DNA of 64,000 nucleotides from an uncultured Alphaproteobacteria bacterium (GCA_910577205.1 CAJTMA010000002.1:123136-187135); one strand, 5' to 3'; counted from the first letter of the stretch, positions 8,962 through 56,992 are shown. Numbers and translations are program-made. Notes: generated by a model not told the origin, from the letters alone.

Positions 8962-10038
8962 TCAATAGCGGATAATTTGATTCAATATCGTATCTTTATC
9001 TATTATTTGCAAAGCCCGGGCAAAACTATCCGGTTCGCTTAAGACGGTATAGTAATTAGCCTTGATTGTCGGCGCCATTTGCAAGGCTTTGATAAAGTCA
9101 TCTTTGCTCAACGGGTCTTGTTTAATATAATTGAAAAATCCGGTAACAGATAAAATATCGCGCACATACGAAGTGCTCGGATTATTTTGCAGCAGCGCGC
9201 AGAGGTAAGTTGCTACGCCGACTTGCAGTCCATGCATACGCGGGCGGCGAGATACCGCATCCAAACCATGGGAAATCAAATGTTCCGAACCGCTGGCCGG
9301 ACGTGAACTTCCGGCAATTTCCATGGCGATACCGCTGGTCAGCAGCGAATTGACCAAGCTGCGCTGAAATGATGTTTCGTTGATATTAGTACTATGCTTA
9401 TTGAAAAGTAAGGTCAGCGAATTGTAAGACATCAGTGAAGCGAAGTCATTATAGCGGTCAAGACCGCGCTCTGCCGCCTGTTTCCAATCATAAAGGGCGG
9501 TAATTTTAGAAACCATGTCCCCCACGCCGGAGTACAGGCAAATCTGCGGGGATTCCTTGATAACATCCAAGTCTGCAACTACACCAAAAGGTATGCTGGC
9601 TTTGACGGTTTTGCGCTTGCCATCGACTATCAGCGATGAATTGGGACTGCAAAATCCGTCATTGGACGTAGACGTCGGCACAGAAATAAAAGGCAGCCGG
9701 AGCAAGTGAGCACAAAACTTAGCAAAATCCAAAGCTTTTCCGCCGCCGATACCGATAATAACATCGGTTGTTTTGGGCAGGTTAAAGGTGATTTTGGTGA
9801 TTTCTTCAATGTTAATAAAGCGGACATCCTGTTCATAAACAATTTTGACCTTGTTTTCTTCCATACCGGGATAGAACCGCTCCGACAAAAGGTGTTGAAT
9901 ACCTTCGCTCCAGAAAACCGCAGCATTAAAAAGATTTTTATCGGCCAAATATTTGCCGATTTTTTTGACTTTGCCGCTGCCGATTTTTAACAGGTAGGGA
10001 ATATTAATTTGTTTGTTGGGATAAGGCGCGTAAAACAT
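8962..10038 (-). CDS. Dehydroquinate-synthase-like / iron-containing alcohol dehydrogenase superfamily enzyme, possibly glycerol-1-phosphate dehydrogenase (AraM/EgsA-like)
   Basis: GIGGGKALDFAKF nucleotide-binding motif and PTSTSNDGF. Strong AGGAGA RBS. Confidence 0.6.
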   Translation of the reverse strand: MFYAPYPNKQINIPYLLKIGSGKVKKIGKYLADKNLFNAAVFWSEGIQHLLSERFYPGMEENKVKIVYEQDVRFINIEEITKITFNLPKTTDVIIGIGGGKALDFAKFCAHLLRLPFISVPTSTSNDGFCSPNSSLIVDGKRKTVKASIPFGVVADLDVIKESPQICLYSGVGDMVSKITALYDWKQAAERGLDRYNDFASLMSYNSLTLLFNKHSTNINETSFQRSLVNSLLTSGIAMEIAGSSRPASGSEHLISHGLDAVSRRPRMHGLQVGVATYLCALLQNNPSTSYVRDILSVTGFFNYIKQDPLSKDDFIKALQMAPTIKANYYTVLSEPDSFARALQIIDKDTILNQIIRY

Positions 10039-10039
10039 C

Positions 10040-10690
10040 TTAATTCTCCTTCAAATAGCGGTAAATATCAGCAAACGAAGCAAAGTTTTCAGTCGGGATG
10101 TCTTCCTGACGGCAGAGCTCCAACAGTTTTTTCTTCGCAAAGACAACATCAGCCTCCCGCGCCGGCAGAATATCAGGCTTGCCATCTCCGGCAAAAACAA
10201 CGCGAAAGCCCTGCTCTTTCAGCTGCCGAACCACGCCAGCTTTGGATATGCCGATTTCATCGTCATAACAAGGGTGGTTTTGCGGCAGACGAGCCATCAC
10301 CAGCCCGGTTTTGGGGCTGTAGTCACAATGATTGGTAACCAAGCAAATATGATTTTCGCGGATAATGGAGCCGATAAGCAAATTAATATACCAATCACAG
10401 CCTGCGGAACAGATATATAACGGAATACGTTTGCGGCGGCAGAGTTCGGCTGTTTCGGGAAAACAGTTGTCGATGGCGATACTTTTGGTAAAACTTTCCA
10501 AATCAGGCAAGTTCTTCAATTGCTGAAACATCTCGTTCAAGGCATCAAAGTGTTTTTTCTCTCCGGCCTGATAAGCCCGCCAAGGCGCAAGCATTGCGTC
10601 ATCAAAATAGCGCGCCGCAGCCAAAGTAAAGAAATCATCGGCTGTGATTGTTCCGTCAAAGTCTGATACGAAGGCTAATGGTCGGGACAT
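10040..10690 (-). CDS. HAD-superfamily subfamily IB phosphatase (MtnX/PSP-like)
   Basis: Motif I FVSDFDGTIT and motif IV FAGDGKPD. 2-nt gap to the downstream DHQS-like gene. Confidence 0.7.
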   Translation of the reverse strand: MSRPLAFVSDFDGTITADDFFTLAAARYFDDAMLAPWRAYQAGEKKHFDALNEMFQQLKNLPDLESFTKSIAIDNCFPETAELCRRKRIPLYICSAGCDWYINLLIGSIIRENHICLVTNHCDYSPKTGLVMARLPQNHPCYDDEIGISKAGVVRQLKEQGFRVVFAGDGKPDILPAREADVVFAKKKLLELCRQEDIPTENFASFADIYRYLKEN

Positions 10691-12733: not shown

Positions 12734-13153
12734 CTATTCTTCAGATGTTTTTTGCTGACGATACCAGTCCGACCATAATTGTTTTTCAATAAACAATTCA
12801 CGGATAAGCGGTTTATTGTCCCAAAGGGCAAATTCCAACTGCATTAACGGGCGTTTTTTGAAAATCAGGCGCTCCATTTCTGCGGCATCGCTTTCTGGAA
12901 GATAAAAGCGGTAAATCTTTTCAAAAAGCTCTTTGGGGCAATCGTCCCGCGGAAATTGACGGCAATCGGTATCTTCCCAATTAACACGCAGCTGCAAATA
13001 GTGCCCTGAAATCAAACTGCGGGGATCATAGCCTTCAACGGTTACCATAACCCGGTTGGCAGCATTGCTGCGATATTCTAACCCCAGTATCCAAACAGCC
13101 AGAATAACAATCGGAAAAGCCAAGGCTATACGGACAAGATTGTTTCTAAACAT
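12734..13153 (-). CDS. GDYXXLXY-domain-like membrane-anchored protein
   Basis: N-terminal TM, then an SGHYLQLRV segment resembling the GDYxxLxY motif. Overlaps the upstream polytopic membrane protein by 8 nt. Confidence 0.5.
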   Translation of the reverse strand: MFRNNLVRIALAFPIVILAVWILGLEYRSNAANRVMVTVEGYDPRSLISGHYLQLRVNWEDTDCRQFPRDDCPKELFEKIYRFYLPESDAAEMERLIFKKRPLMQLEFALWDNKPLIRELFIEKQLWSDWYRQQKTSEE

Positions 13154-14273
13154 TGCTTTTCTCCCTTATTTTCGGAAACAAACGATTGCGTAACTTTTGC
13201 CAGAGTCCGGCTAATCCCAGAAAGACCAGTCCGGAAACAATAAGCCCTGCCCCTGTCGATAACAGTGAGCCAAAGACCTCAAGATATATACCAAACAGAC
13301 GTAGCGCAATCAGCACCGTAGCGACATTAAACAAGCGGGTTTGATGCGTGCAATATGCATAACTGCTGACAATTGCCAGCAAAGCAATAATCATTGCGGC
13401 TGATGCCATACCTTCCGCCGCGGGAAAAGCTTTTCCCAACACAGAATATCCCCAAATGACAGCCAATGCATAAGTTGCCGGCCAATAAGTTTTTTTGCGG
13501 TCAGAAAACCATAATGCGGCCAGCAGCAACAAAGCTGCGCCCCAATACGGCCAACCGACACTGTGACTGATTGACAACGTATTGACATTAAACATATCAA
13601 AAAAGACAGTCGCACAGACAAAAGCGGTGACCGTCCACCAACGCCAAGCCTGTTGCCATGCAGGCCGGGGCAGCTGTTTGATTAAACGGTAAAAGGCACT
13701 CAGCAGCCACAGAGAAAGCCATATCGCGAAATGATAATTTCTTGAAAACAGTGCATCCATTATCCGCTCAAACCACGAATATTCATAAAGCTTGTCACTC
13801 AACGACCAAATAAAACCAGGCAGCCATACTCCCGGAAAAAATGGCTTTGTGCACAGGAGCAGCAGCGGGAAACTCAACACCGACCAGAATAACACTGCTG
13901 ACAAGCCATCCGCCGGCAGATGGTATACCTGCCCGGCCAAACCAATGGATGCCATAATCAACAAAGCATAGAGAATTATCAGGCCTTCCAATAACAACAC
14001 TTTGCCCTGCTCGCGCAAGGTCCAAATTCCCCAAGCAACCGAAATCAACAGGATAAAATCAGCACATAGCTTTACCGCGGCCGGTATCGTTTCCCAATTG
14101 GCGGCAATGACGGCAATAAAGCCTATCCCGATACAAAAAGCGCTTAAAAATAACAAAGAGTAGAAGAGGATTGGCCGTTTGACATTGTTTTCATAGTCTA
14201 ATATTTGTTGCTGCTGCTCGGCGGTTATCAGCTGATGTTTTTGCCAATCAGACAATTTTGAAGCCAGATTCAT
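13146..14273 (-). CDS. Polytopic membrane protein (DUF2157/DUF4401-like)
   Basis: About 10 predicted TM helices. Conserved pairing with the GDYXXLXY-like gene. Confidence 0.5.
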   Translation of the reverse strand: MNLASKLSDWQKHQLITAEQQQQILDYENNVKRPILFYSLLFLSAFCIGIGFIAVIAANWETIPAAVKLCADFILLISVAWGIWTLREQGKVLLLEGLIILYALLIMASIGLAGQVYHLPADGLSAVLFWSVLSFPLLLLCTKPFFPGVWLPGFIWSLSDKLYEYSWFERIMDALFSRNYHFAIWLSLWLLSAFYRLIKQLPRPAWQQAWRWWTVTAFVCATVFFDMFNVNTLSISHSVGWPYWGAALLLLAALWFSDRKKTYWPATYALAVIWGYSVLGKAFPAAEGMASAAMIIALLAIVSSYAYCTHQTRLFNVATVLIALRLFGIYLEVFGSLLSTGAGLIVSGLVFLGLAGLWQKLRNRLFPKIREKSNV

Positions 14274-14475
14274 ATTCCTGTCCCTTAATCGTTATGATGA
14301 TTAAAAAAGCTACTCAAATCTATTCATTTAAGCAACTGATTTTTACCGTTAAAAGCATAAATCTTAAAAAAACATTAAAAAACGTGGTATAACTTTGCTG
14401 GCTGATTGACGAGAAACGCTCCATTGGTTAACAATACCTTGTCGACATTTATTTTTTAACCATGGTAGCAGATTG

Positions 14476-17400
14476 ATGACTTTTAAAATTTTCAATTTCA
14501 GGAGCATTGTTACATATCTGACAATTGTATCTTTTTATATTGCCTCAACGGTTTCAGCCGTTGCTGCTCCTATGCCGCCTATCAGCCTGGCACAAATGTA
14601 CAGCTTAGCAGCGCAGGGCAATGTCCGCGCGCTGAGAGCCGCGGTTCAGCGCGGTTTGAACATTGACGCTACCGACCGCTATGGCAACACCGGCTTATGT
14701 CACTCAATCTACCAGCATAACTACACTGCTTATAACGCTTTTCACGCATCCGGCGCGAACACACGCCATCCCTGCATTCAGAATATTCCGACCGAGCAAT
14801 ATGATTATTTTATGAACTCAAGCAGGGTTCAACCTATTACGGCGACTCCGCGTGATGCTTATAAAGAATTTGCTGACGGCGAATTTATTTTCTCCACGAC
14901 CACTTGGGTTGTCGGCGGTCTGCTGCTTGCCGGCGGAATCACAGCTTTAGTTTTGAGCAGCGGCGGCAAAAAGAAAAAGAAAGCTTATTACTTTCCGCCA
15001 AACAATGATAATACATTTAAGCCAACAGATGACAGTTTAGCTGCTTTTGCCGGAACTTTGACACCCTCTGATCCGGTCAGCAATCCTTATGTTCCGGTCA
15101 AAATTACCAATGGCTTAAACACGACTGACTTTATTTTAAATAATGACTCCCAAATTACGCTGGATGACGGCAGCAAAAAAAGTTTGGTTGATACCATTAA
15201 CTTTAACGACTCAGTTTTGGAATACAGTAAATATCTGCAAGTGGGTATGAAAGCTATTGACGGCAATCAGGTGGTTAACGGGCAAATTCCGTTAACGGGA
15301 ACAGAAGTCGGCACCACGATTACGCTCCTGAATAATACTGTCGGTATGGCTGCTTTGCATAATGCCAATGCTATCAATAACAATACATTAAAAATCATTG
15401 CCCGCAACGGCACTCTGGGGATGGTCGGCAGTGACCGCTCTTTGATACGCAACAACGGCAATATTGATATTGCCTTTCAGGGAACGTCCCCAACGGATCA
15501 GGTTAACGGAATGTACGTGGACACGTCGTCAACGGCTATTAATGACGGCAAGATTACCGGAAATGTTGCCGTAGACAGCGCCACGGGTACTCTTATCGGA
15601 ATGCAGGGACGCTTGATTAATCAAGTGTCTAATCCGGCCGGTTCTATCCCTATTCAACTGACAAACAACGGAAAAATTGAATTAAGCGCCACAGCGGCCG
15701 CGGGGAAAACCATTTCCAACTCGCTTATCGGGATGGGCAGTTTTCTGGAAAAAGCTTTTCTGGAAGGTACTAAACTGCTGCGTCGCACAGGTTTTATCGA
15801 TATTGCAAACTACGGCGATATTGATTTGAACGTTAATCTGGGCGATACCGGGACTTATGACTCGACACAGAGCAACCTTTATGACGGTACGGGCGGCATT
15901 ATCGGTATTCGTGCCGATGCGCACACCACCGCTTCCAATAACGGTAATATTAATTTGACTATTGCTCCGGAAAGCGCCGCCGGAATCGAAAATTCTCATG
16001 CCGGTATGTTCTCTGTTCATGGCGGAACGATTTCCAATAACAAAAACATCACCATCAGCGGCGGCATTGGCGGCTATGGGATGCTCGGGGTACGCGGCGA
16101 AGGCACTAACTCTGAATTTAACACTTTAAACCCGACTATTGTCAATTCGGCTTCCGGGACAATTACCGTTAACAGTGTTGACGGTTTTGGTATGGCAACC
16201 AGACATGGCGGCACTGTCGTTAATAACGGCACGATTATTATGGGCGACAAAGGTACTGGCTTACAGATTAATGCCGGAAGCGGCTCTAATACCGGCACAA
16301 TTACGCTTAATAACGGCGGTATCGGTATGGCGATTAAGAAAAACACGACTTCCAGCGATGGAACTATTTATAATGCCAGCACGGCCAAGCTGCAAAATGA
16401 AAACATAATTACAATCAACAACGCGAACGGCTCAAGCGGTATGTATATTGAAGACGGCCTGGCTAATAACTTAGGCGGCGTGATTAATGTCAACGGCATT
16501 AACACCACAACGGAATCGTCTTATGGTATCCGGGCGCTTAACGGAAAAGTTTTAAACAGCGGCGAAATCAATATGAATGTTCTGTTGTCCGGCGATTTGG
16601 ATTCTTACGGCATTTACGGGGATAACGCAACGACTGTCAATAACAGCGGAACAATTACATCTGTCCGCAAAGGCACGGGTATTTATACTACAAGCGGTTC
16701 AAGCACCAACTCTGGCAAAATTACCATGAACGGCCGGGGCAGCACGGGCATGGCTTCAGAAAGCGGCGCAATTACCAATACGGATAAAGGCGAAATAACC
16801 GTTATCAGCGGCACTGGTATCAAATCAACATCCGGACAAGTGATAAATGAAGGTAAAGTGATTATCACCGATGGCTCGGCATCAACCGGTATCTCCAGCG
16901 GCAGCAGTGTTATTAACTCCGGTTCAATCTCAATTACCGGCGCGGATTCGACCGGTATTGCCGTTGAAGAAAACGGCACAGCCTCCAACAGCGGTATTAT
17001 TACCCTGACCAGTAACCGTAACAGCACAGAAAACTTCGGTATGGTTTCGGCCGGAGGTGATCGGGCTCAGATTGAAAACAGCGGTATTATTACCCTAAAC
17101 GGCTATAACTACGCCTCCAGCAAAGAAAAAGGCTACGGAATGTCTATCGGTGACGGCCAAGCTATTAACAACAATATGATTACCATTAATCAGATGTACG
17201 GTTACGGCATGGCTTCCACTACCGGTACTTTGACAAATAACGGTGACATTACGTTAACCAACGGCGGTTACGGCATTAAAGGCGAAAGCGGTGAATCCTT
17301 TAACTCGGAAGGCGGCACAATTATCATTACCGGCACGCCCGTTTTGGAAAGCTCTTACGGTATGGCTATGGAAGACGGGACTGCCAAAAACTTTGGTAAA

Positions 17401-20400
17401 ATTGATGTTACCGGCAGCACGACAAATGATGCGACATATGGTATTTATGTCAATGGCGGTAACGGCATTAACCATAATCAGATTGATATGCGGTCAGACA
17501 ATGCTTATGGTATTTTTGACGCGGCATCCGGCGATGGTGCAATTACTAACTTTGCCGGCGCAGTCATCAACTTACATGGCAACAACTCTACCGGTATGCA
17601 AAGTTCCGGCAACAAAGCTGAAAACTACGGAACGATTAATATCGGCGTTAATAACGGCGGAACAGTTACCGGCGGTGTTAACGGCATCGGCATGACCGCA
17701 AATGACGGGACTACGGCCCTTAATTCCGGCCAGATTAACATGAACGGCGCAAATGCCGTCGGTATGTTTGCTGACGGCGGTACGGTTATCAACTCAGCTG
17801 ACGGCGTTATTACCATGAACGGCAATGGCGGCACAATCTTTAAAACCAGCAATGACGGTACGGCAATTAACCTGGGCGACATTGTCATTAATGCCCAAGA
17901 TTATAATCTGTTTACCACAACAGATACCGATGAAGGCAACTTTGTCAATAACGGCAATGTTACGGTCGGCGCTTCTGGATCACAGGTTATCCGCGTCGGA
18001 GATAACTCCAGCGTTACCAATAACAAAAATATTGATTTAAATGGCAGCAATGGTTTCATAATCTACACCAGCGGCAGCGGCAATGCGACCAATAACGGCA
18101 CTTTAAATATTGGTGCGGGAAGTGATAACTCGCATGGTATTTACATGAGCGAAACAGCTAACGGAACAGTTATTAATTCTTCGACAGGCATTATCAATGT
18201 TAACGGAAGCAATTCTAACGGCATGACGCTGGCTTCCAATGATACCTCTGCCAGCATTACCAACAAAGGTAAAATTAATGTCAGCGGTAATGGCTCAAAG
18301 GCGATTGCGGCCAGCAACGGCGGCACCATCAATAATGAGGGGACTATTACCATGAACGGCGGCAGCGCAGCCATTGAAGCGACTGGAGCTGTTGTCAATA
18401 ATAAAGCCGGCGCTACAATTACAACTGCCGCAAACAGCGATGCAGACGGCATAAAGGTCATCATGGGAGCAACACCTGACGCAGAAGCGGCAACGGTTAC
18501 CAATGACGGCACAATCATTATCAACGGTAATGGCGATGCTATTAATGCCAAAGGTTCGTCAACAGCCGCCGGTATGATGCATTCTATTACCAATAACAGT
18601 GTTATTACCATTAACGGTTCAGGCAGCGGCATTTTTGCAGATGCGGCAAATATCAATAACACCTCTTCGGCACGCATTAACATTAGCGGCAGCGGTTACG
18701 GCATCCGCCAGACCAGTGGTACAATCGACAACAGCGGGACAATTACAGTTACCGGAAATAACGGCACAGGTATTTCCAGCGGCGGAACGGCAACAAATAA
18801 CGGAACGATTACTGCCGGTGGAACAAATGCCAAAGGAATGGAACTTACTACAGGCGGCACAGGAACTAACAATTCCACAATTATAGCCAGCGGAACGGAT
18901 GCGGTCGGTATTTATGTTAATGGCGGCACTGCCGAGAATACAGGTAATATTTCAGCGTCAGGAACGGGCGCAACCGGCGTGTATGCAACAGGCGGAACAG
19001 CTTATAACCAGACCTCTATAAGCGTTAATGGCGATAATGCAATCGGCATGGCAGCAGGAAACGGCACAGTCACTAACGGCAAAACGATTGTCACGATTGA
19101 AACGGATGAAAGAGGCGATCCGGTTCTGGATGCTGATGGTAATGTTGTCACCAATACAGAACACAAACCCGGGGTTATTGATGTTACCGGAAATAATGCA
19201 GCCGGTATGAAATTAACCGGAACTGGAAAAGTCCTCAATAATACCGGCGCACTTATTTCTGTCAGCGGTGATGGCGCAACAGGTATTTGGGCTGCAGGCT
19301 CAGGCGTTGCCGAAAATGAAGGGACAATTACCGTATCTAACGCGACTAACGGCAGTTCGGGGATGAAAGCCACCAGCGGCACAGCCACAAATAAAGGCAC
19401 AATATCTGTCAGCGCAGACGGCGCTTGGGGAATGGATGCGGCCGGAGGCACTGTCGTCAATGACACAACCGGCATCATTGACCTTACGACAGCAAACAGT
19501 GTGGGTATTTATGTTCACAGCGGCAACGGCGAAAACAGAGGCGTTATCAACTTTACCGGAGAAAATACTATCGGGCTGTTGGCTGCCGGCGGAACAGCCA
19601 CTAATGCGGCGGATATAACAATCAACGGCACAGGTGTTGTCGGTTTATATGCTCATGGCGGAACGGTTGTTAATGCCAGCGGAAAAACTATTACCTTTAG
19701 TAACGGCGAAGCCGCTATCAAGGTTGACAGCGGCAGCGGTCGCAATGCAGGTACGATTAATGTCGACGGCGGAAACTTAAACGCTATTCTGGTTAGCGGT
19801 GGCAATGCCTCTAATGACGGCACGATAGAACTCACCTCCTCTGCCAGCGGCAGTATCGGCATGAAAGCAACTGCCGGAACAGCAACCAACAACGGGACGA
19901 TTACTATCGCCAGCAATGCGGCAGGTATGGATGCTTCCGGTTCAGGACAAGTCGCCAACAACAAAACAATTACTGTTTCCGGAGCAAATGCGGTTGGCAT
20001 GAGCGCTTCCGGCGGCACGGCGACCAATAACAGCAACGGCACGATTACAGTCACCGGAGCTAATGCGAAAGGTATGGCTGCCAGCAGCGGAACTGTCTTA
20101 AACAATGGCACAATCAATGCAACCGCAGCCAATACGATTGCGATGTATGCCAACGGCGGCACGGCCACTAACGGCAGCAGCGGCAAAATCAACACCTCGG
20201 CTTCCTCGGCATATGTTATGCTGGCTGAGGGAACAGGTACAGTCAACAACCAAGGGACAATATCTTATTCCGGTTCTGGGGCGGCCTTACAAGCGAATGG
20301 GGCAACGGCCAATAACAGCGGTATCATTACAGCCACTAACGGTACGGGCATGGCCGCGTACGGGACAGCATCTTCAGGAGGCAAAGCTGTCAACAGCGGC

Positions 20401-55735: not shown

Positions 55736-56992
55736 TTATTCTGTATAATTTTCCGTAATGATTAATGTTACATCTCCTGAGCAAGTAGCAATAGTTTCAT
55801 CATTATCATACTCCCAAGCAATCTTAACAGAACCCTTATTATAAGCGTATTCATGAAGATATTCGCCGCTATCTTCGGTTAAAAACTCCACGCCCAGAGG
55901 GAGATTTGAACAAGTCTTCGAGAAAGAAGATATATAAGCTCCGTCCCCGATATAACCAATACGCTCCGCTCCCGGATCTAAAATAATTTCTGCCCAGTTA
56001 CTCCAAGCATTAGCGCTGACATTCCCTGAAAGAGCAACCTCTGTTACCGTCCCCCTCTTCCCTGTGCTGCTCTCTACAACAATGCTGCTATCAGCTTGTT
56101 TTACAGAACATACATTTCCATTCTTTTGTCCTACAAAATTTAAATACAAATACCATTTTTCATTCGTACATACATCACCACTTTCTTTCGGCTCGCCATA
56201 ATAAACCACCGGGCGAACGTAATCATCACTATTTTTGTAATTTGTATTTTTAGTGTTATCGCTCTTGTCAAATTCCCATGCCGTCTCTTTATCATACTCA
56301 CAAGAAGACCAATACCATTTTGCTTCAAATGGCACAGTTCCATAATCTTTTAACATTGCTATTGTTGTGTCTAACAGCTTCCCAACAGAATACATTTGTG
56401 AAAATTCTTTAATGCTGGGCAGAAACCATTTTGTTTTCTTACAGAAATCCTGAGTACATCCCGCAGGCTGATAGCTATTGGCTGCCGTCGCCGCCGGCGT
56501 TCCGCCACAGCTGCTTCCACAGGCTAATATTTTATCCGTATTAGAACGACCATCCACACTACAACTATCTACCGACGCGGGATTGTCATTATATTGGCAA
56601 TTCGTTAAGTTCGGCATATCATAGCTATTGTTTGACCAATACATCGTTTCACTTCCTGCTGTGCCATCTTTCTTCACGTCAGTCAATGAAACTGCTAATT
56701 TGTTGGTTTCATCAAAAACAATACCTATTGGCGTTTTGCCGGAAATAACATTTTTGCTGACCGTACCGTCGCCATACAAAATCGGCAAAGAATTTTCAGA
56801 GGATTTTTTGGGGCAAAAAACTTTAGACATATCTGTCGGACACTTAACGGCAACTTGCCCCTCACAATCCGCCGCGCTCATCGTATAGCCTAAGTCAGCG
56901 CAGTCCGGCGCAAGGGTACAAACAGCATAAAGGGGAGAAGAATAAAGGATTGTTCCGGATAATAAAACGGACGCAAACAGGGGAGTTTTCAT
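55736..56992 (-). CDS. Secreted cysteine-rich protein (family member 2)
   Basis: Signal peptide MKTPLFASVLLSGTILYSSPLYA. 27 Cys. Same architecture class as 2781..4598. Its 3-prime end and terminator are duplicated at 54887-54960. Confidence 0.6.
   Translation of the reverse strand: MKTPLFASVLLSGTILYSSPLYAVCTLAPDCADLGYTMSAADCEGQVAVKCPTDMSKVFCPKKSSENSLPILYGDGTVSKNVISGKTPIGIVFDETNKLAVSLTDVKKDGTAGSETMYWSNNSYDMPNLTNCQYNDNPASVDSCSVDGRSNTDKILACGSSCGGTPAATAANSYQPAGCTQDFCKKTKWFLPSIKEFSQMYSVGKLLDTTIAMLKDYGTVPFEAKWYWSSCEYDKETAWEFDKSDNTKNTNYKNSDDYVRPVVYYGEPKESGDVCTNEKWYLYLNFVGQKNGNVCSVKQADSSIVVESSTGKRGTVTEVALSGNVSANAWSNWAEIILDPGAERIGYIGDGAYISSFSKTCSNLPLGVEFLTEDSGEYLHEYAYNKGSVKIAWEYDNDETIATCSGDVTLIITENYTE

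Follow-up and report, generated by a model that had tools for sequence, protein, structure and literature searches.

A giant predicted autotransporter of gut Alphaproteobacteria carries an ankyrin-like domain and a hydrophobic helix ahead of its passenger

Among secretion systems, autotransporters are the textbook 'simple' case, and they are much used for display. Their passengers are thought to lack membrane-spanning segments and to contain only tight disulfide loops. The window analysed here, a stretch of 64,000 nucleotides from an uncultured Alphaproteobacteria bacterium, encodes a very large protein in which a signal peptide is followed by an ankyrin-like repeat, a hydrophobic segment and a poly-Lys run. 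Unlike what the above rule holds, the long members of its family that we examined keep a TM-grade helix and a Cys pair with a spacing of 25 ahead of a giant passenger. Is this N-terminus a genuine part of an autotransporter, and where does it reside in the finished protein? The combination of an ankyrin-helix N-terminus with a type Va architecture is not explained by standard secretion models.

The gene is intact. The open reading frame spans positions 14473..22263 of the plus strand, is initiated by TTG and comprises 2596 codons; translation from the first ATG at 14476 to the stop at 22263 gives a protein of 2595 aa. The features are listed below, with their basis in parentheses.

14476..22263, plus strand: complete autotransporter gene, stop codon at 22261-22263 (ORF list, translation)
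14476..14565, plus strand: Sec signal peptide, residues 1-30 (K4/R9 n-region, h-region, c-region S-A-V-A↓A-P)
14572..14880, plus strand: ankyrin-like domain, residues ~33-135 (two Ank-type helix pairs and extra helices)
14698-14700, plus strand: invariant C75 (sequence, relatives)
14773-14775, plus strand: invariant C100 (sequence, relatives)
14905..14961, plus strand: Trp-capped, Gly/Ala-rich hydrophobic helix WVVGGLLLAGGITALVLSS, residues 144-162 (W144-S162), 19 aa (hydropathy, relatives)
14962..14982, plus strand: linker GG-KKKKK, residues 163-169, encoded by GGC GGC AAA AAG AAA AAG AAA (sequence)
14983..15240, plus strand: Pro/Asp-rich spacer, residues 170-255 (conserved motifs YYFP and DDSL..F.GT in the alignment; AF2 pLDDT <50)
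15241..20790, plus strand: beta-helical passenger, residues ~256-2105 (~1850 aa), ~80 coils, ~38 nm (period, AF2, Foldseek)
20797..20820, plus strand: Cys loop C2108-C2115 (CEDGTNTC) at the passenger base (sequence, spacing 7)
20821..21507, plus strand: junction region with acidic low-complexity residues 2215-2246 and a putative pore-linker helix at residues 2302-2326 (read from sequence)
21508..22260, plus strand: autotransporter beta-barrel domain, PF03797 match at residues 2345-2574, running to the terminal AGLTYAF

[quoted passage not shown] A Pfam scan of the full protein missed the barrel and gave only a sub-threshold Ank_4 match, and an NCBIfam scan of the full protein gave no match, with nothing relevant in scans of its pieces. 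When the C-terminus was scanned alone, PF03797 matched its 230 C-terminal residues with 59.2 bits (cut-off 26, E 7e-16, model positions 11-253 of 255). The same domain scores 44-80 bits in eight diverse family members, and barrel homologues with a terminal Phe are present in all 26 of 26 complete relatives. A phmmer search with the C-terminus against PDB sequences gave no match. The passenger has an autocorrelation period of 23 residues, a content of 17% Gly, 13% Asn and 13% Thr, and internal paralogy. The AF2 model of residues 1001-1500 (pLDDT 88.5, pTM 0.88) exhibits three strands per coil, and its best Foldseek matches are Ag43 (7koh/4kh3), Fap2 (9qe7), TibA (4q1q) and pertactin (1dab). The Fap2 structure among these top matches was deposited as the membrane-distal part of the extracellular domain of a giant autotransporter. 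A precomputed match to PF27417 (BigA_3rd) also lies in the passenger. The giant autotransporter and the C-terminal beta-barrel of the original prediction are thus confirmed by the PF03797 match of the isolated C-terminus, the terminal aromatic residue and the beta-helical passenger model. The predicted PATR-like passenger repeats had to be abandoned, with PF12951 (E ≤ 10) and the NCBIfam PATR model (E ≤ 1) silent on the thirds of the passenger.

The two Cys residues at the passenger base have a spacing of 7, which is typical for autotransporter passengers (PMC8151025). The junction region that follows is less conserved than any other part of the protein, and we infer that its helix at residues 2302-2326 may thread the pore as a linker. 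Purifying selection on the barrel and the passenger is clear. From its sequence, the protein is an intact, classical (type Va) autotransporter, and display at the cell surface is predicted.

The signal peptide was identified by inspection of the sequence only. It has an n-h-c organization ending in SAVA↓AP (A-V-A↓A at residues 28-31), and the AF2 model places a helix at residues 8-25 within it. AxA-type cleavage sites are conserved among the relatives, in keeping with the assignment made at the outset. The signal peptide is of ordinary length, and the first 200 residues do not match the ESPR model (PF13018) at E ≤ 1. There is no lipobox, as no Cys occurs at the cleavage site or anywhere before residue 75. 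Downstream of the helix, no alternative start with a signal peptide was found. A true start 3' of the helix was ruled out because the signal peptide would be lost and because the N-terminus is the most conserved region.

The ankyrin-like domain has a length of ~105 aa, and its repeat LAAQGNVRALRAAVQRGLNIDATDRYGNTGLCH corresponds to residues 44-76. On the window protein, Ank_4 scores 18.7-22.1 bits, just below the Pfam cut-off of 22.7, and it matches 19 of 25 relatives at E ≤ 0.01 (best 4.9e-6). When a family profile was compared with solved structures in the PDB, nearly all of the 60 matches listed were ankyrin proteins, including 5d66_A (E 4e-8), KIDINS220 (1.1e-7) and ankyrin-1/2 (1.1e-5); AnkB (9iq8, E 1.5e-3) and Bd3460 (5cea, E 0.055) matched more weakly. 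The AF2 model, for which a 40-row alignment of database proteins was used as input, has a pLDDT of 87-95 over residues 35-130 and shows helices at 38-46/50-58 and 73-79/83-91 (pLDDT ~90). Every Foldseek match of this model was an ankyrin or DARPin structure. The alignments to DARPins and Skd3 cover ~57 columns with an rmsd of ~3 Å and a probability of 1.0, but with E values of only ~1e-2. The spacing of 25 between Cys75 and Cys100 is kept in 88 of 95 relatives. These family-level profile matches and the structural model indicate a real but divergent ankyrin-type fold, so that the ankyrin-like repeat claimed for the window protein stands at the level of the family.

The hydrophobic stretch noted originally is located at residues 144-162 and was found in every full-length relative. 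Its mean Kyte-Doolittle value is 1.86. Besides the signal peptide, it is the sole TM-grade segment of the protein, with a simple Hessa-scale sum of +0.8 versus at least +7.2 elsewhere. In a comparison made with approximate scale values, the fused helices (n = 64) have a mean sum of +1.8, compared with -0.35 for the stand-alone C-terminal anchors (n = 4 only; p = 0.017), and the VacA segment, taken with an approximate sequence, gives +3.2. The flanks lack a positive-inside bias, with a net charge of approximately -0.2 before and -0.4 after the helix. AF2 confidence is low for this segment. The Lys run is indeed present (residues 165-169) but is not an architectural feature: it is lineage-specific because nearly all relatives have a run of 5-10 Gly residues at the same place.

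All N-terminal elements of the original prediction were found in the translation where it had put them, and the atypical N-terminus is conserved and not accidental: its ankyrin-like domain, although divergent, is real, and a TM-like helix comes next. We found neither a lack of ankyrin support nor a start beyond the helix, and more than 100 relatives retain the module at the protein level. With a threshold of E ≤ 1e-30, the N-terminal module has matches in at least 124 clusters of 50% identity, most of which contain proteins of 1000-4291 aa. The same layout occurs as uninterrupted ORFs in 26 species-level genomes (26 genome loci) and in 64 long proteins among the matches listed. The ankyrin module is the best conserved region, above the barrel, and together with the first 400 passenger residues it forms the most conserved parts of proteins that range from 1000 to 4291 aa in length. 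A conserved head with a stalk of variable length is a pattern that fits a functional head on a spacer. In 19 of the 64 relatives, 10-28 Cys residues lie directly after the Gly run, and P0155 has EGF_2 and EGF_Teneurin matches above threshold on the passenger side. The module also exists on its own: P0040 and P0044 are exported proteins with a signal peptide and an Ank domain and no autotransporter downstream, and some small stand-alone proteins end in a C-terminal membrane helix, stopping exactly at the helix end. A 4-TM protein is encoded beside stand-alone forms. The long proteins form a large autotransporter family, so far unnamed, in which the layout is fixed: signal peptide, ankyrin domain, helix, Gly run, beta-helix and PF03797 barrel.

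Public assemblies contain the identical 2595-aa protein in 37 blocks, from which 22 contigs were read. The cluster of this protein at 90% identity holds 44 members, and no name is attached to any of the 40 read. A literature search for ankyrin-bearing autotransporters or autotransporters of RF32-type gut Alphaproteobacteria returned nothing pertinent. Within the 64-kb window, there is no second copy of the N-terminal module or of the barrel, and promoter and terminator scans of the gene flanks gave matches at chance level only.

Uncultured gut or rumen MAGs are the source of all 32 related genome loci, of which 31 are labelled as Alphaproteobacteria, proteobacteria or Pseudomonadota (the remaining one as Lactobacillaceae). 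The closest related genome is that of Ca. Scatocola faecipullorum. The neighbours in the window encode AdhE, a MATE pump, Mfd and RecG, an ordinary content for a free-living anaerobe. The host is a gut alphaproteobacterium of free-living type near Ca. Scatocola. The suggested link between the ankyrin repeat and intracellular bacteria therefore finds no support in the related loci or the neighbouring genes. Clustering of flanking ORFs at 27 loci gave no conserved partner gene for a protease, chaperone or Dsb protein. The flanking synteny is lineage-limited, as DUF2157, GDYXXLXY, HAD and G1P-dehydrogenase-like genes occur in 12-13 of the 27 loci and none is universal.

The location of the helix can be approached from its two sides. 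The ankyrin domain appears to be exported because it follows the signal peptide, contains the invariant Cys pair and also occurs in stand-alone proteins with a signal peptide. The part after the helix should lie outside the cytoplasm because it comprises the passenger, the barrel and, for some relatives, Cys-rich modules of EGF type. The protein has no further hydrophobic segment able to re-initiate export. Both flanks can thus be placed fairly firmly outside the cytoplasm, and therefore the helix would not be an inner-membrane span in the finished protein. It would have to pass SecYEG without integrating, aided by its Gly-diluted, borderline hydrophobicity, as the Gly-rich N-terminal helix of Helicobacter pylori VacA does. 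The signal peptide at the N-terminus, the stand-alone forms and the Cys pair all contradict a model in which the helix is the signal peptide of the passenger and the ankyrin domain is cytoplasmic.

Our preferred reading, which we hold tentatively and with less than even confidence, is that the protein may be an adhesin with a distal ankyrin head and a VacA-like helix that is membrane-active or self-associating. Autotransporter passengers exit C-terminus first, so that the ankyrin head and the helix would come out last and end at the membrane-distal tip of the stalk. The strongly conserved head might bind a conserved partner at this tip. The helix is thin and rich in small residues; with the Gly run as its hinge, it might enter a target membrane or zip with the helices of other copies. 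In VacA, a Sec-exported autotransporter, the N-terminal hydrophobic GXXXG segment of 32 residues dimerises and forms membrane channels, and a 12-residue N-terminal extension, as in type s2, abolishes activity (PMC4926140). Against the likeness to VacA, 110 residues precede the helix here, compared with a position at the extreme N-terminus in VacA. Against a distal tip, the most conserved part of a surface protein of a gut bacterium is more usually periplasmic than an exposed tip, and the stand-alone homologues look periplasmic or inner-membrane-anchored, which hints at a periplasmic partner.

These observations lead to the main alternative, which is possible but, in our judgement, doubtful. 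The ankyrin domain would fold in the periplasm, close its disulfide there and remain inside the outer membrane for good. It might then act as a permanent plug, with the helix and the Gly run of minimal cross-section filling the pore or the outer membrane like the C-terminus of HMW1-type TpsA, or as a transient tether that holds the N-terminus of the very long passenger at the envelope and recruits periplasmic factors until secretion is done, a role like the one proposed for the ESPR. If oxidised in the periplasm, C75 and C100 would close a 25-residue loop in a folded domain, and the head might therefore never pass the outer membrane. For comparison, secretion of the autotransporter Pet was blocked by loops that exceeded 20 residues, according to Leyton 2011 as cited in PMC10269718. 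The spacing of 25 exceeds this limit of ~20 residues, and the second Cys pair of the window protein has the spacing of 7 usual for secreted passengers. The conservation of the module above that of the barrel favours periplasmic retention, as do the stand-alone proteins, which are best read as periplasmic or inner-membrane-anchored, and the periplasmic-type bacterial ankyrin proteins AnkB (9iq8) and Bd3460 (5cea) among the profile matches. Precedents are available in the transient inner-membrane anchoring by ESPR and in the disulfide domain of TpsA that is retained in the periplasm (PMC8151025). Because the present family lacks an ESPR, another device for very long passengers is plausible. However, a permanent plug faces a geometric difficulty: the ~38-nm rod is fixed to the barrel by its C-terminal base, and an N-terminal end at the same pore would need ~6% of the passenger to be unfolded, or a fold-back (our estimate). 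The spacer beyond the helix has only ~90 residues. The EGF-like, Cys-rich modules on the passenger side (19 of 64 relatives) speak against retention since disulfide-rich parts are evidently exported by the family, and no conserved partner gene adjoins the locus (27 loci).

It is improbable that the helix and the Gly run are a processing or sorting signal. A rhombosortase-, exosortase- or signal-peptidase-like enzyme would recognise them and cut the Ank-helix piece off the passenger or transfer one part to a lipid or cell-wall anchor. The window protein has a GlyGly-CTERM-type outline, namely GG at the helix start, a hydrophobic helix and a basic cluster. The segment also resembles an internal signal peptide, often with K or R before the helix and with small residues and the Gly run after it, and the stand-alone forms stop exactly at the helix end. 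Nevertheless, the basic cluster is missing in nearly all relatives, the segment is internal rather than C-terminal, and NCBIfam sorting-signal models are silent on residues 33-175 and on the first 200 residues. The flanking genes (27 loci) include no conserved protease gene, and the required N-in/C-out orientation is at odds with an exported ankyrin domain.

Ankyrin repeats are common among secreted effectors, and the domain is small, very conserved and N-terminal to a single helix. It is conceivable, though quite improbable, that the helix at the tip enters the membrane of a eukaryotic or bacterial target cell and brings the ankyrin domain to the other side, where it would bind a cytosolic protein. 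The invariant Cys pair and the exported stand-alone forms point instead to an extracytoplasmic working environment, the host bacteria are gut-lumen MAGs and not intracellular lineages, and we know of no precedent for an autotransporter that moves a folded N-terminal domain across a target membrane.

An artefact, in which misassembly across the low-complexity run joined a small signal-peptide-Ank-TM gene in frame to an autotransporter, or a dead gene, in which the helix is a stop-transfer sequence and the 'passenger' is cytoplasmic, is largely refuted and very improbable: the Gly/Lys run is where several gene calls from metagenomes (P0003, P0005, P0007, P0009 and P0018) are cut short or chimeric, and the helix is TM-grade on simple scales, but the 37 blocks are independent assemblies, the 26 genomes and 64 long proteins share the layout, the autotransporter part lacks a separate signal peptide, and the barrel and passenger are under clear purifying selection. 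An assembly chimera in particular is contradicted by the many independent identical copies.

More broadly, it is possible, though less likely than not, that the family represents a new sub-mode of type V secretion, in which a conserved membrane helix and an ankyrin module stapled by a disulfide are part of the passenger itself. This sub-mode may take one of two forms: a periplasmic arrest or anchor with the poly-Gly run in the pore, or a 'harpoon' on a 40-nm rod directed into the membrane of another cell. If true, neither the arrest device nor the harpoon would have a described counterpart among classical autotransporters, and the mechanism would be widespread in gut Alphaproteobacteria. Humans, poultry and ruminants all harbour gut or rumen bacteria with this module. 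Knowing where the module finally resides would test the limits of Sec stop-transfer and outer-membrane translocation and could reveal a new mechanism of tip adhesion or secretion arrest. It would also open a first way into the function of the main surface protein in a group of gut Alphaproteobacteria about which little is known.

The window protein shares a Sec signal peptide, a long right-handed beta-helix and a PF03797 barrel with a terminal Phe with Ag43, TibA, pertactin, Salmonella BigA and Fusobacterium Fap2, and its giant size and rod shape with Fap2 in particular. To our knowledge, none of these proteins has an ankyrin-like domain, a TM-grade helix and a poly-Gly hinge before the beta-helix. 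The Sca autotransporters of Rickettsiales are also large alphaproteobacterial type Va proteins, but the host lineage here is gut Ca. Scatocola-like and not Rickettsiales, and gives no evidence of a specific relationship. Pseudomonas aeruginosa AnkB (9iq8), Bdellovibrio Bd3460 (5cea) and 5d66_A are small ankyrin-repeat domains among the best profile or fold matches. AnkB and Bd3460 act outside the cytoplasm, and the stand-alone family members share the signal-peptide-Ank(-TM) outline with them. In contrast to these three, the domain of the window protein has approximately two repeats with unique helices and a Cys pair and is fused to an autotransporter, and the matches are weak.

Lipoprotein autotransporters of the NalP and SphB1 type and ESPR-bearing proteins resemble the window protein in having an N-terminal device that keeps or delays the passenger N-terminus at a membrane (PMC8151025). 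The window protein differs in that it has neither a lipobox Cys nor an ESPR match, and its hydrophobic element is a protein helix located 110 residues inside the mature chain. VacA differs in several respects. No sequence relationship was detected, and no VacA family appeared in the Pfam scans of the window protein. The helix of the window protein lies behind a folded domain of 110 residues and not at the extreme mature N-terminus, it contains a GG-x4-GG motif compared with the tandem GXXXG of VacA, and it precedes a passenger that is ~3 times longer. The two are alike in the following respect: VacA is an autotransporter whose sole hydrophobic segment of TM length, Gly-rich and located in the mature N-terminal region, still passes the Sec machinery and the outer membrane, and the helix of the window protein is likewise the only such segment and rich in small residues.

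The autotransporter is encoded by a single uninterrupted frame on the + strand (window 14473 to 22263), whose first ATG, at 14476, gives a protein of 2595 residues. The following N-terminal elements all lie where the original prediction placed them.

Residues 1-30: predicted signal peptide, read from the sequence (K4/R9, hydrophobic core, S-A-V-A / A-P cleavage motif)
Residues 44-76: ankyrin-like string
Residues 144-162: hydrophobic stretch WVVGGLLLAGGITALVLSS
Residues 163-169 (window 14962-14982): GG-KKKKK, codons GGC GGC AAA AAG AAA AAG AAA

When the C-terminal 320-427 residues were scanned alone, nearly the full PF03797 barrel model was matched (59 bits, cut-off 26), and the chain ends in ...AGLTYAF. 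Full-length HMM scans of the 2595-residue protein missed the barrel; Pfam returned a weak Ank_4 match alone and NCBIfam nothing. The 59-bit match came only from the separate scan of the C-terminus (window 20980-22260) and is absent from that of the whole protein (14476-22260), presumably because the composition-bias filter was set off by the passenger, which is rich in G (17%), N (13%), and T (13%). Autotransporters among such giants may be under-called by automated annotation. The passenger has an autocorrelation period of 23 residues, with harmonics, and its segments are paralogous to one another. In an AF2 model of residues 1001-1500 (pLDDT 88.5, pTM 0.88), built with a pseudo-alignment of the protein's own paralogous segments, each coil consists of three short strands, and the best matches among solved structures are the autotransporter beta-helices of Ag43, Fap2, TibA, and pertactin. 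The coil count (about 80) gives an estimated rod length of roughly 38 nm. PF27417 (BigA_3rd) is listed for the protein in the public collection's precomputed Pfam annotation. With its barrel HMM match, signal peptide, beta-signal, and beta-helix, the window protein is a type Va autotransporter. The barrel and the fold thus bear out the earlier designation as canonical type Va, but not the PATR-like repeats that had been part of it: scans of the passenger in thirds matched neither PF12951 (E<=10) nor the PATR model of NCBIfam (E<=1).

The ankyrin-like character proposed for the N-terminus is clear at the family level, where the evidence shows a divergent domain with about two repeats. The window protein alone scores 22.0-22.1 bits for Ank_4, slightly below the Pfam threshold of 22.7, and the His of its TPLH motif is replaced by C75, but 19 of 25 relatives match the model (best E 4.9e-6). 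A profile of 25 family N-termini reached solved ankyrin proteins (5d66_A, E 4e-8; KIDINS220, 1.1e-7; ankyrin-1/2, 1.1e-5); nearly all of the 60 matches listed are ankyrin proteins, including bacterial AnkB (9iq8) and Bd3460 (5cea). Residues 35-130 were modeled by AF2 from a 40-row alignment with pLDDT 87-95, showing helix pairs at residues 38-58 and 73-91 followed by three more helices. The top Foldseek matches are all ankyrin or DARPin structures (~57 columns, rmsd ~3 Å, probability 1.0, E ~1e-2).

One genome per species was scanned with a degenerate pattern, which gave 32 loci, every one in uncultured gut or rumen MAGs, with hosts in the record titles that include chicken, Hadza humans, cattle (rumen RUGs), deer, and yak. 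The nearest relative, at 77% identity, is from Ca. Scatocola faecipullorum. Thirty-one loci are labeled Alphaproteobacteria, proteobacteria, or Pseudomonadota. The remaining one, a full alphaproteobacterial-type autotransporter on an 829-kb contig (JAISVX010000003.1), comes from a MAG labeled 'Lactobacillaceae bacterium', which is probably a mislabeled or contaminated bin. Given these gut and rumen sources, and neighboring genes for AdhE, a MATE pump, a histidine phosphatase, Mfd, and RecG, the suggested link to intracellular bacteria is not supported. Complete ORFs (1610-3320 aa) in 26 loci share one order of parts: AxA signal peptide, ankyrin-like domain, W-capped hydrophobic helix rich in Gly/Ala, Gly run, passenger, and a homologous barrel terminating in F. 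An exhaustive profile search against 1.84 billion cluster representatives produced 655 matches with E<=1e-3, of which 124 reached E<=1e-30. Among those listed, most are proteins of 1000-4291 aa whose module spans residues 1 to about 170, and a few are ankyrin proteins of the generic multi-repeat kind that fall outside the autotransporter family. The helix and Gly run are present in all long family members examined, and eight of eight diverse C-termini matched PF03797. Poly-Lys is confined to the cluster of the window protein; in other members the longest run of Gly typically measures 5-10 residues. Six metagenome proteins (P0003, P0005, P0007, P0009, P0018, and P0043) carry a truncated module or one fused to an unrelated protein (HflX-like GTPase, TPR, annexin-like). 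Often the break falls at or near the Gly/Lys run, but in P0009 and P0043 it lies inside the ankyrin module; frameshifts in gene calling or chimeric assembly at the low-complexity repeat are the probable cause.

Conservation along the window protein peaks in the ankyrin module. In close relatives this module is 87-92% identical, compared with 75-76% for the barrel, 62-68% for the mid-passenger, and 51-60% for the junction between passenger and barrel; the corresponding values in distant relatives are about 50%, 27-31%, 27-31%, and 26-32%. Of 95 relatives, 88 have two cysteines at a spacing of exactly 25, and in 83 the module holds exactly two Cys. The window protein has only four cysteines in all, the second pair being C2108 and C2115 (spacing 7). 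Directly behind the Gly run, 19 of 64 relatives have 10-28 Cys, and in one of them (P0155) EGF_2 and EGF_Teneurin score above threshold. A sub-family (P0155, P0136, P0129, P0138, and P0105) carries 20-39 inserted Cys between poly-Gly and beta-helix, in EGF-like or other Cys-rich repeats. Autotransporter passengers are normally Cys-poor, and such an insert is unusual.

The module also occurs without a passenger. Database protein P0040 (121 aa) consists of a signal peptide and the ankyrin-like domain only; this variant and two others (P0034 and P0035) all terminate in ...KAW(Q/R)L. In others, such as P0044, P0125, P0153, P0156, and P0160, signal peptide and domain are followed by a helix that forms the very C-terminus, without a Gly run. 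Stand-alone genes at two genome loci (L033 and L034) have a conserved context, with a small 4-TM protein and no autotransporter downstream.

L033 10001-10726 and L034 812-1621: stand-alone genes (signal peptide and ankyrin-like domain, 121 aa; signal peptide, ankyrin-like domain, and C-terminal helix, 150 aa), each followed by a conserved 4-TM protein (113-115 aa)

The module is thus an autonomous exported unit, and the simplest reading of its stand-alone form is a protein of the periplasm or one with an inner-membrane anchor. The stand-alone gene and the 4-TM gene could be a functional pair, hinting at the native partner of the module. An OMP_b-brl gene lies upstream of each stand-alone gene. 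A -1 slip on AAA AAG within window 14962-14982 would, from a reading of the sequence, meet a stop 11 codons on (…EKESLLLSAKQ); purely speculatively, it might yield a signal-peptide-ankyrin-helix protein of ~177 aa with a charged tail, like the stand-alone forms. The poly-Gly relatives do not have this tract. Other genes around these loci are as follows.

Window 12734-14273 (-): DUF2157 membrane protein (375 aa) and GDYXXLXY protein (139 aa), a divergently transcribed gene pair directly upstream of the autotransporter
Window 8962-10690 (-): glycerol-1-phosphate-dehydrogenase-like gene (NF002022, E 9e-71, under the curated cut-off) beside a HAD hydrolase
Window 55736-56992 (-): Cys-rich secreted protein, bordering a low-GC stretch (54-56 kb, GC 0.37)
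L033 9117-9923: Cys-rich secreted protein, immediately upstream of the stand-alone gene

In 13 of 27 loci the DUF2157/GDYXXLXY pair is syntenic with the autotransporter gene, which is likely lineage synteny only. The dehydrogenase/HAD pair is kept in 12-13 related loci; this dehydrogenase type is uncommon for an alphaproteobacterium. The Cys-rich proteins share the N-terminal motif …C T.. PDCAD(L/M)GYT…C…KCP.D.SK.FC… and are an uncharacterised family.

Integration of both hydrophobic segments into the inner membrane would leave 2400 residues, the barrel among them, in the cytoplasm, an arrangement that is senseless for an autotransporter. By simple sums of scale values, the helix scores +0.8 and the best of the remaining segments +7.2, and no hydrophobic segment further along could restart export. 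The flanks of the helix have no positive-inside bias. Helices of the fused proteins are more strongly diluted with Gly, and less hydrophobic, than stand-alone C-terminal anchors (+1.8 against -0.35, p=0.017, n=4 for the latter) and fall between these and the VacA helix (+3.2), a comparison that is indicative only. The domain side of the helix would be extracytoplasmic because of the signal peptide, the Cys pair, and the stand-alone forms, and the other side because of the passenger, the barrel, the Cys-rich stretches of the 19 relatives, and the lack of a restart segment. We conclude with fair confidence that the helix passes SecYEG without integrating and, in the finished protein, lies outside the inner membrane.

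Passengers of autotransporters come out C-terminus first (PMC8151025), so that head and helix would leave last and end up at the far tip of the ~38-nm rod. This is our leading model, which we hold tentatively. The first 400 passenger residues are conserved alongside the module and the stalks differ greatly in length among relatives, which fits a functional head on a spacer. The second surviving model, somewhat less likely, is a periplasmic stopper or tether, in which the head stays in the periplasm, as does the disulfide-bonded end of HMW1-type TpsA proteins (PMC8151025). It is favored by how extremely the module is conserved, by the periplasm type of the stand-alone forms, and by the lack of an ESPR (the extended signal peptide of some autotransporters), as well as by the Cys spacing of 25, since secretion of Pet was blocked by loops of >20 residues (Leyton 2011, as cited in PMC10269718). 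However, relatives evidently export Cys-rich EGF-like modules, and the far end of a base-anchored straight rod could return as a permanent plug to its own pore only with ~6% of the passenger unfolded, by our estimate. Compared with the distal-tip placement, it is improbable that the helix region is a processing or sorting signal, and more so that the protein delivers an effector into a target cell. An artefact or dead gene is very improbable; the identical protein is recorded in 37 blocks of public assemblies (22 contigs read) and its 90%-identity cluster has 44 members (none of the 40 read bears a name), so the window protein is not an assembly accident.

Our literature searches turned up no autotransporter described as carrying an N-terminal ankyrin-helix-polyGly module. 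Membership of the window protein in the PATR-bearing, ESPR-bearing, or lipoprotein autotransporters, in the VacA family, or among GlyGly-CTERM substrates was rejected. The sole likeness to VacA is a Gly-rich helix of TM length near the passenger N-terminus, which in VacA takes the autotransporter route and then serves TM dimerisation and channel formation (PMC4926140), a precedent for the distal-tip model. For the type V secretion field, the interest of this layout is that it breaks two working rules, namely no TM segment and tight disulfide loops only, and that it is kept across a large family of gut bacteria.
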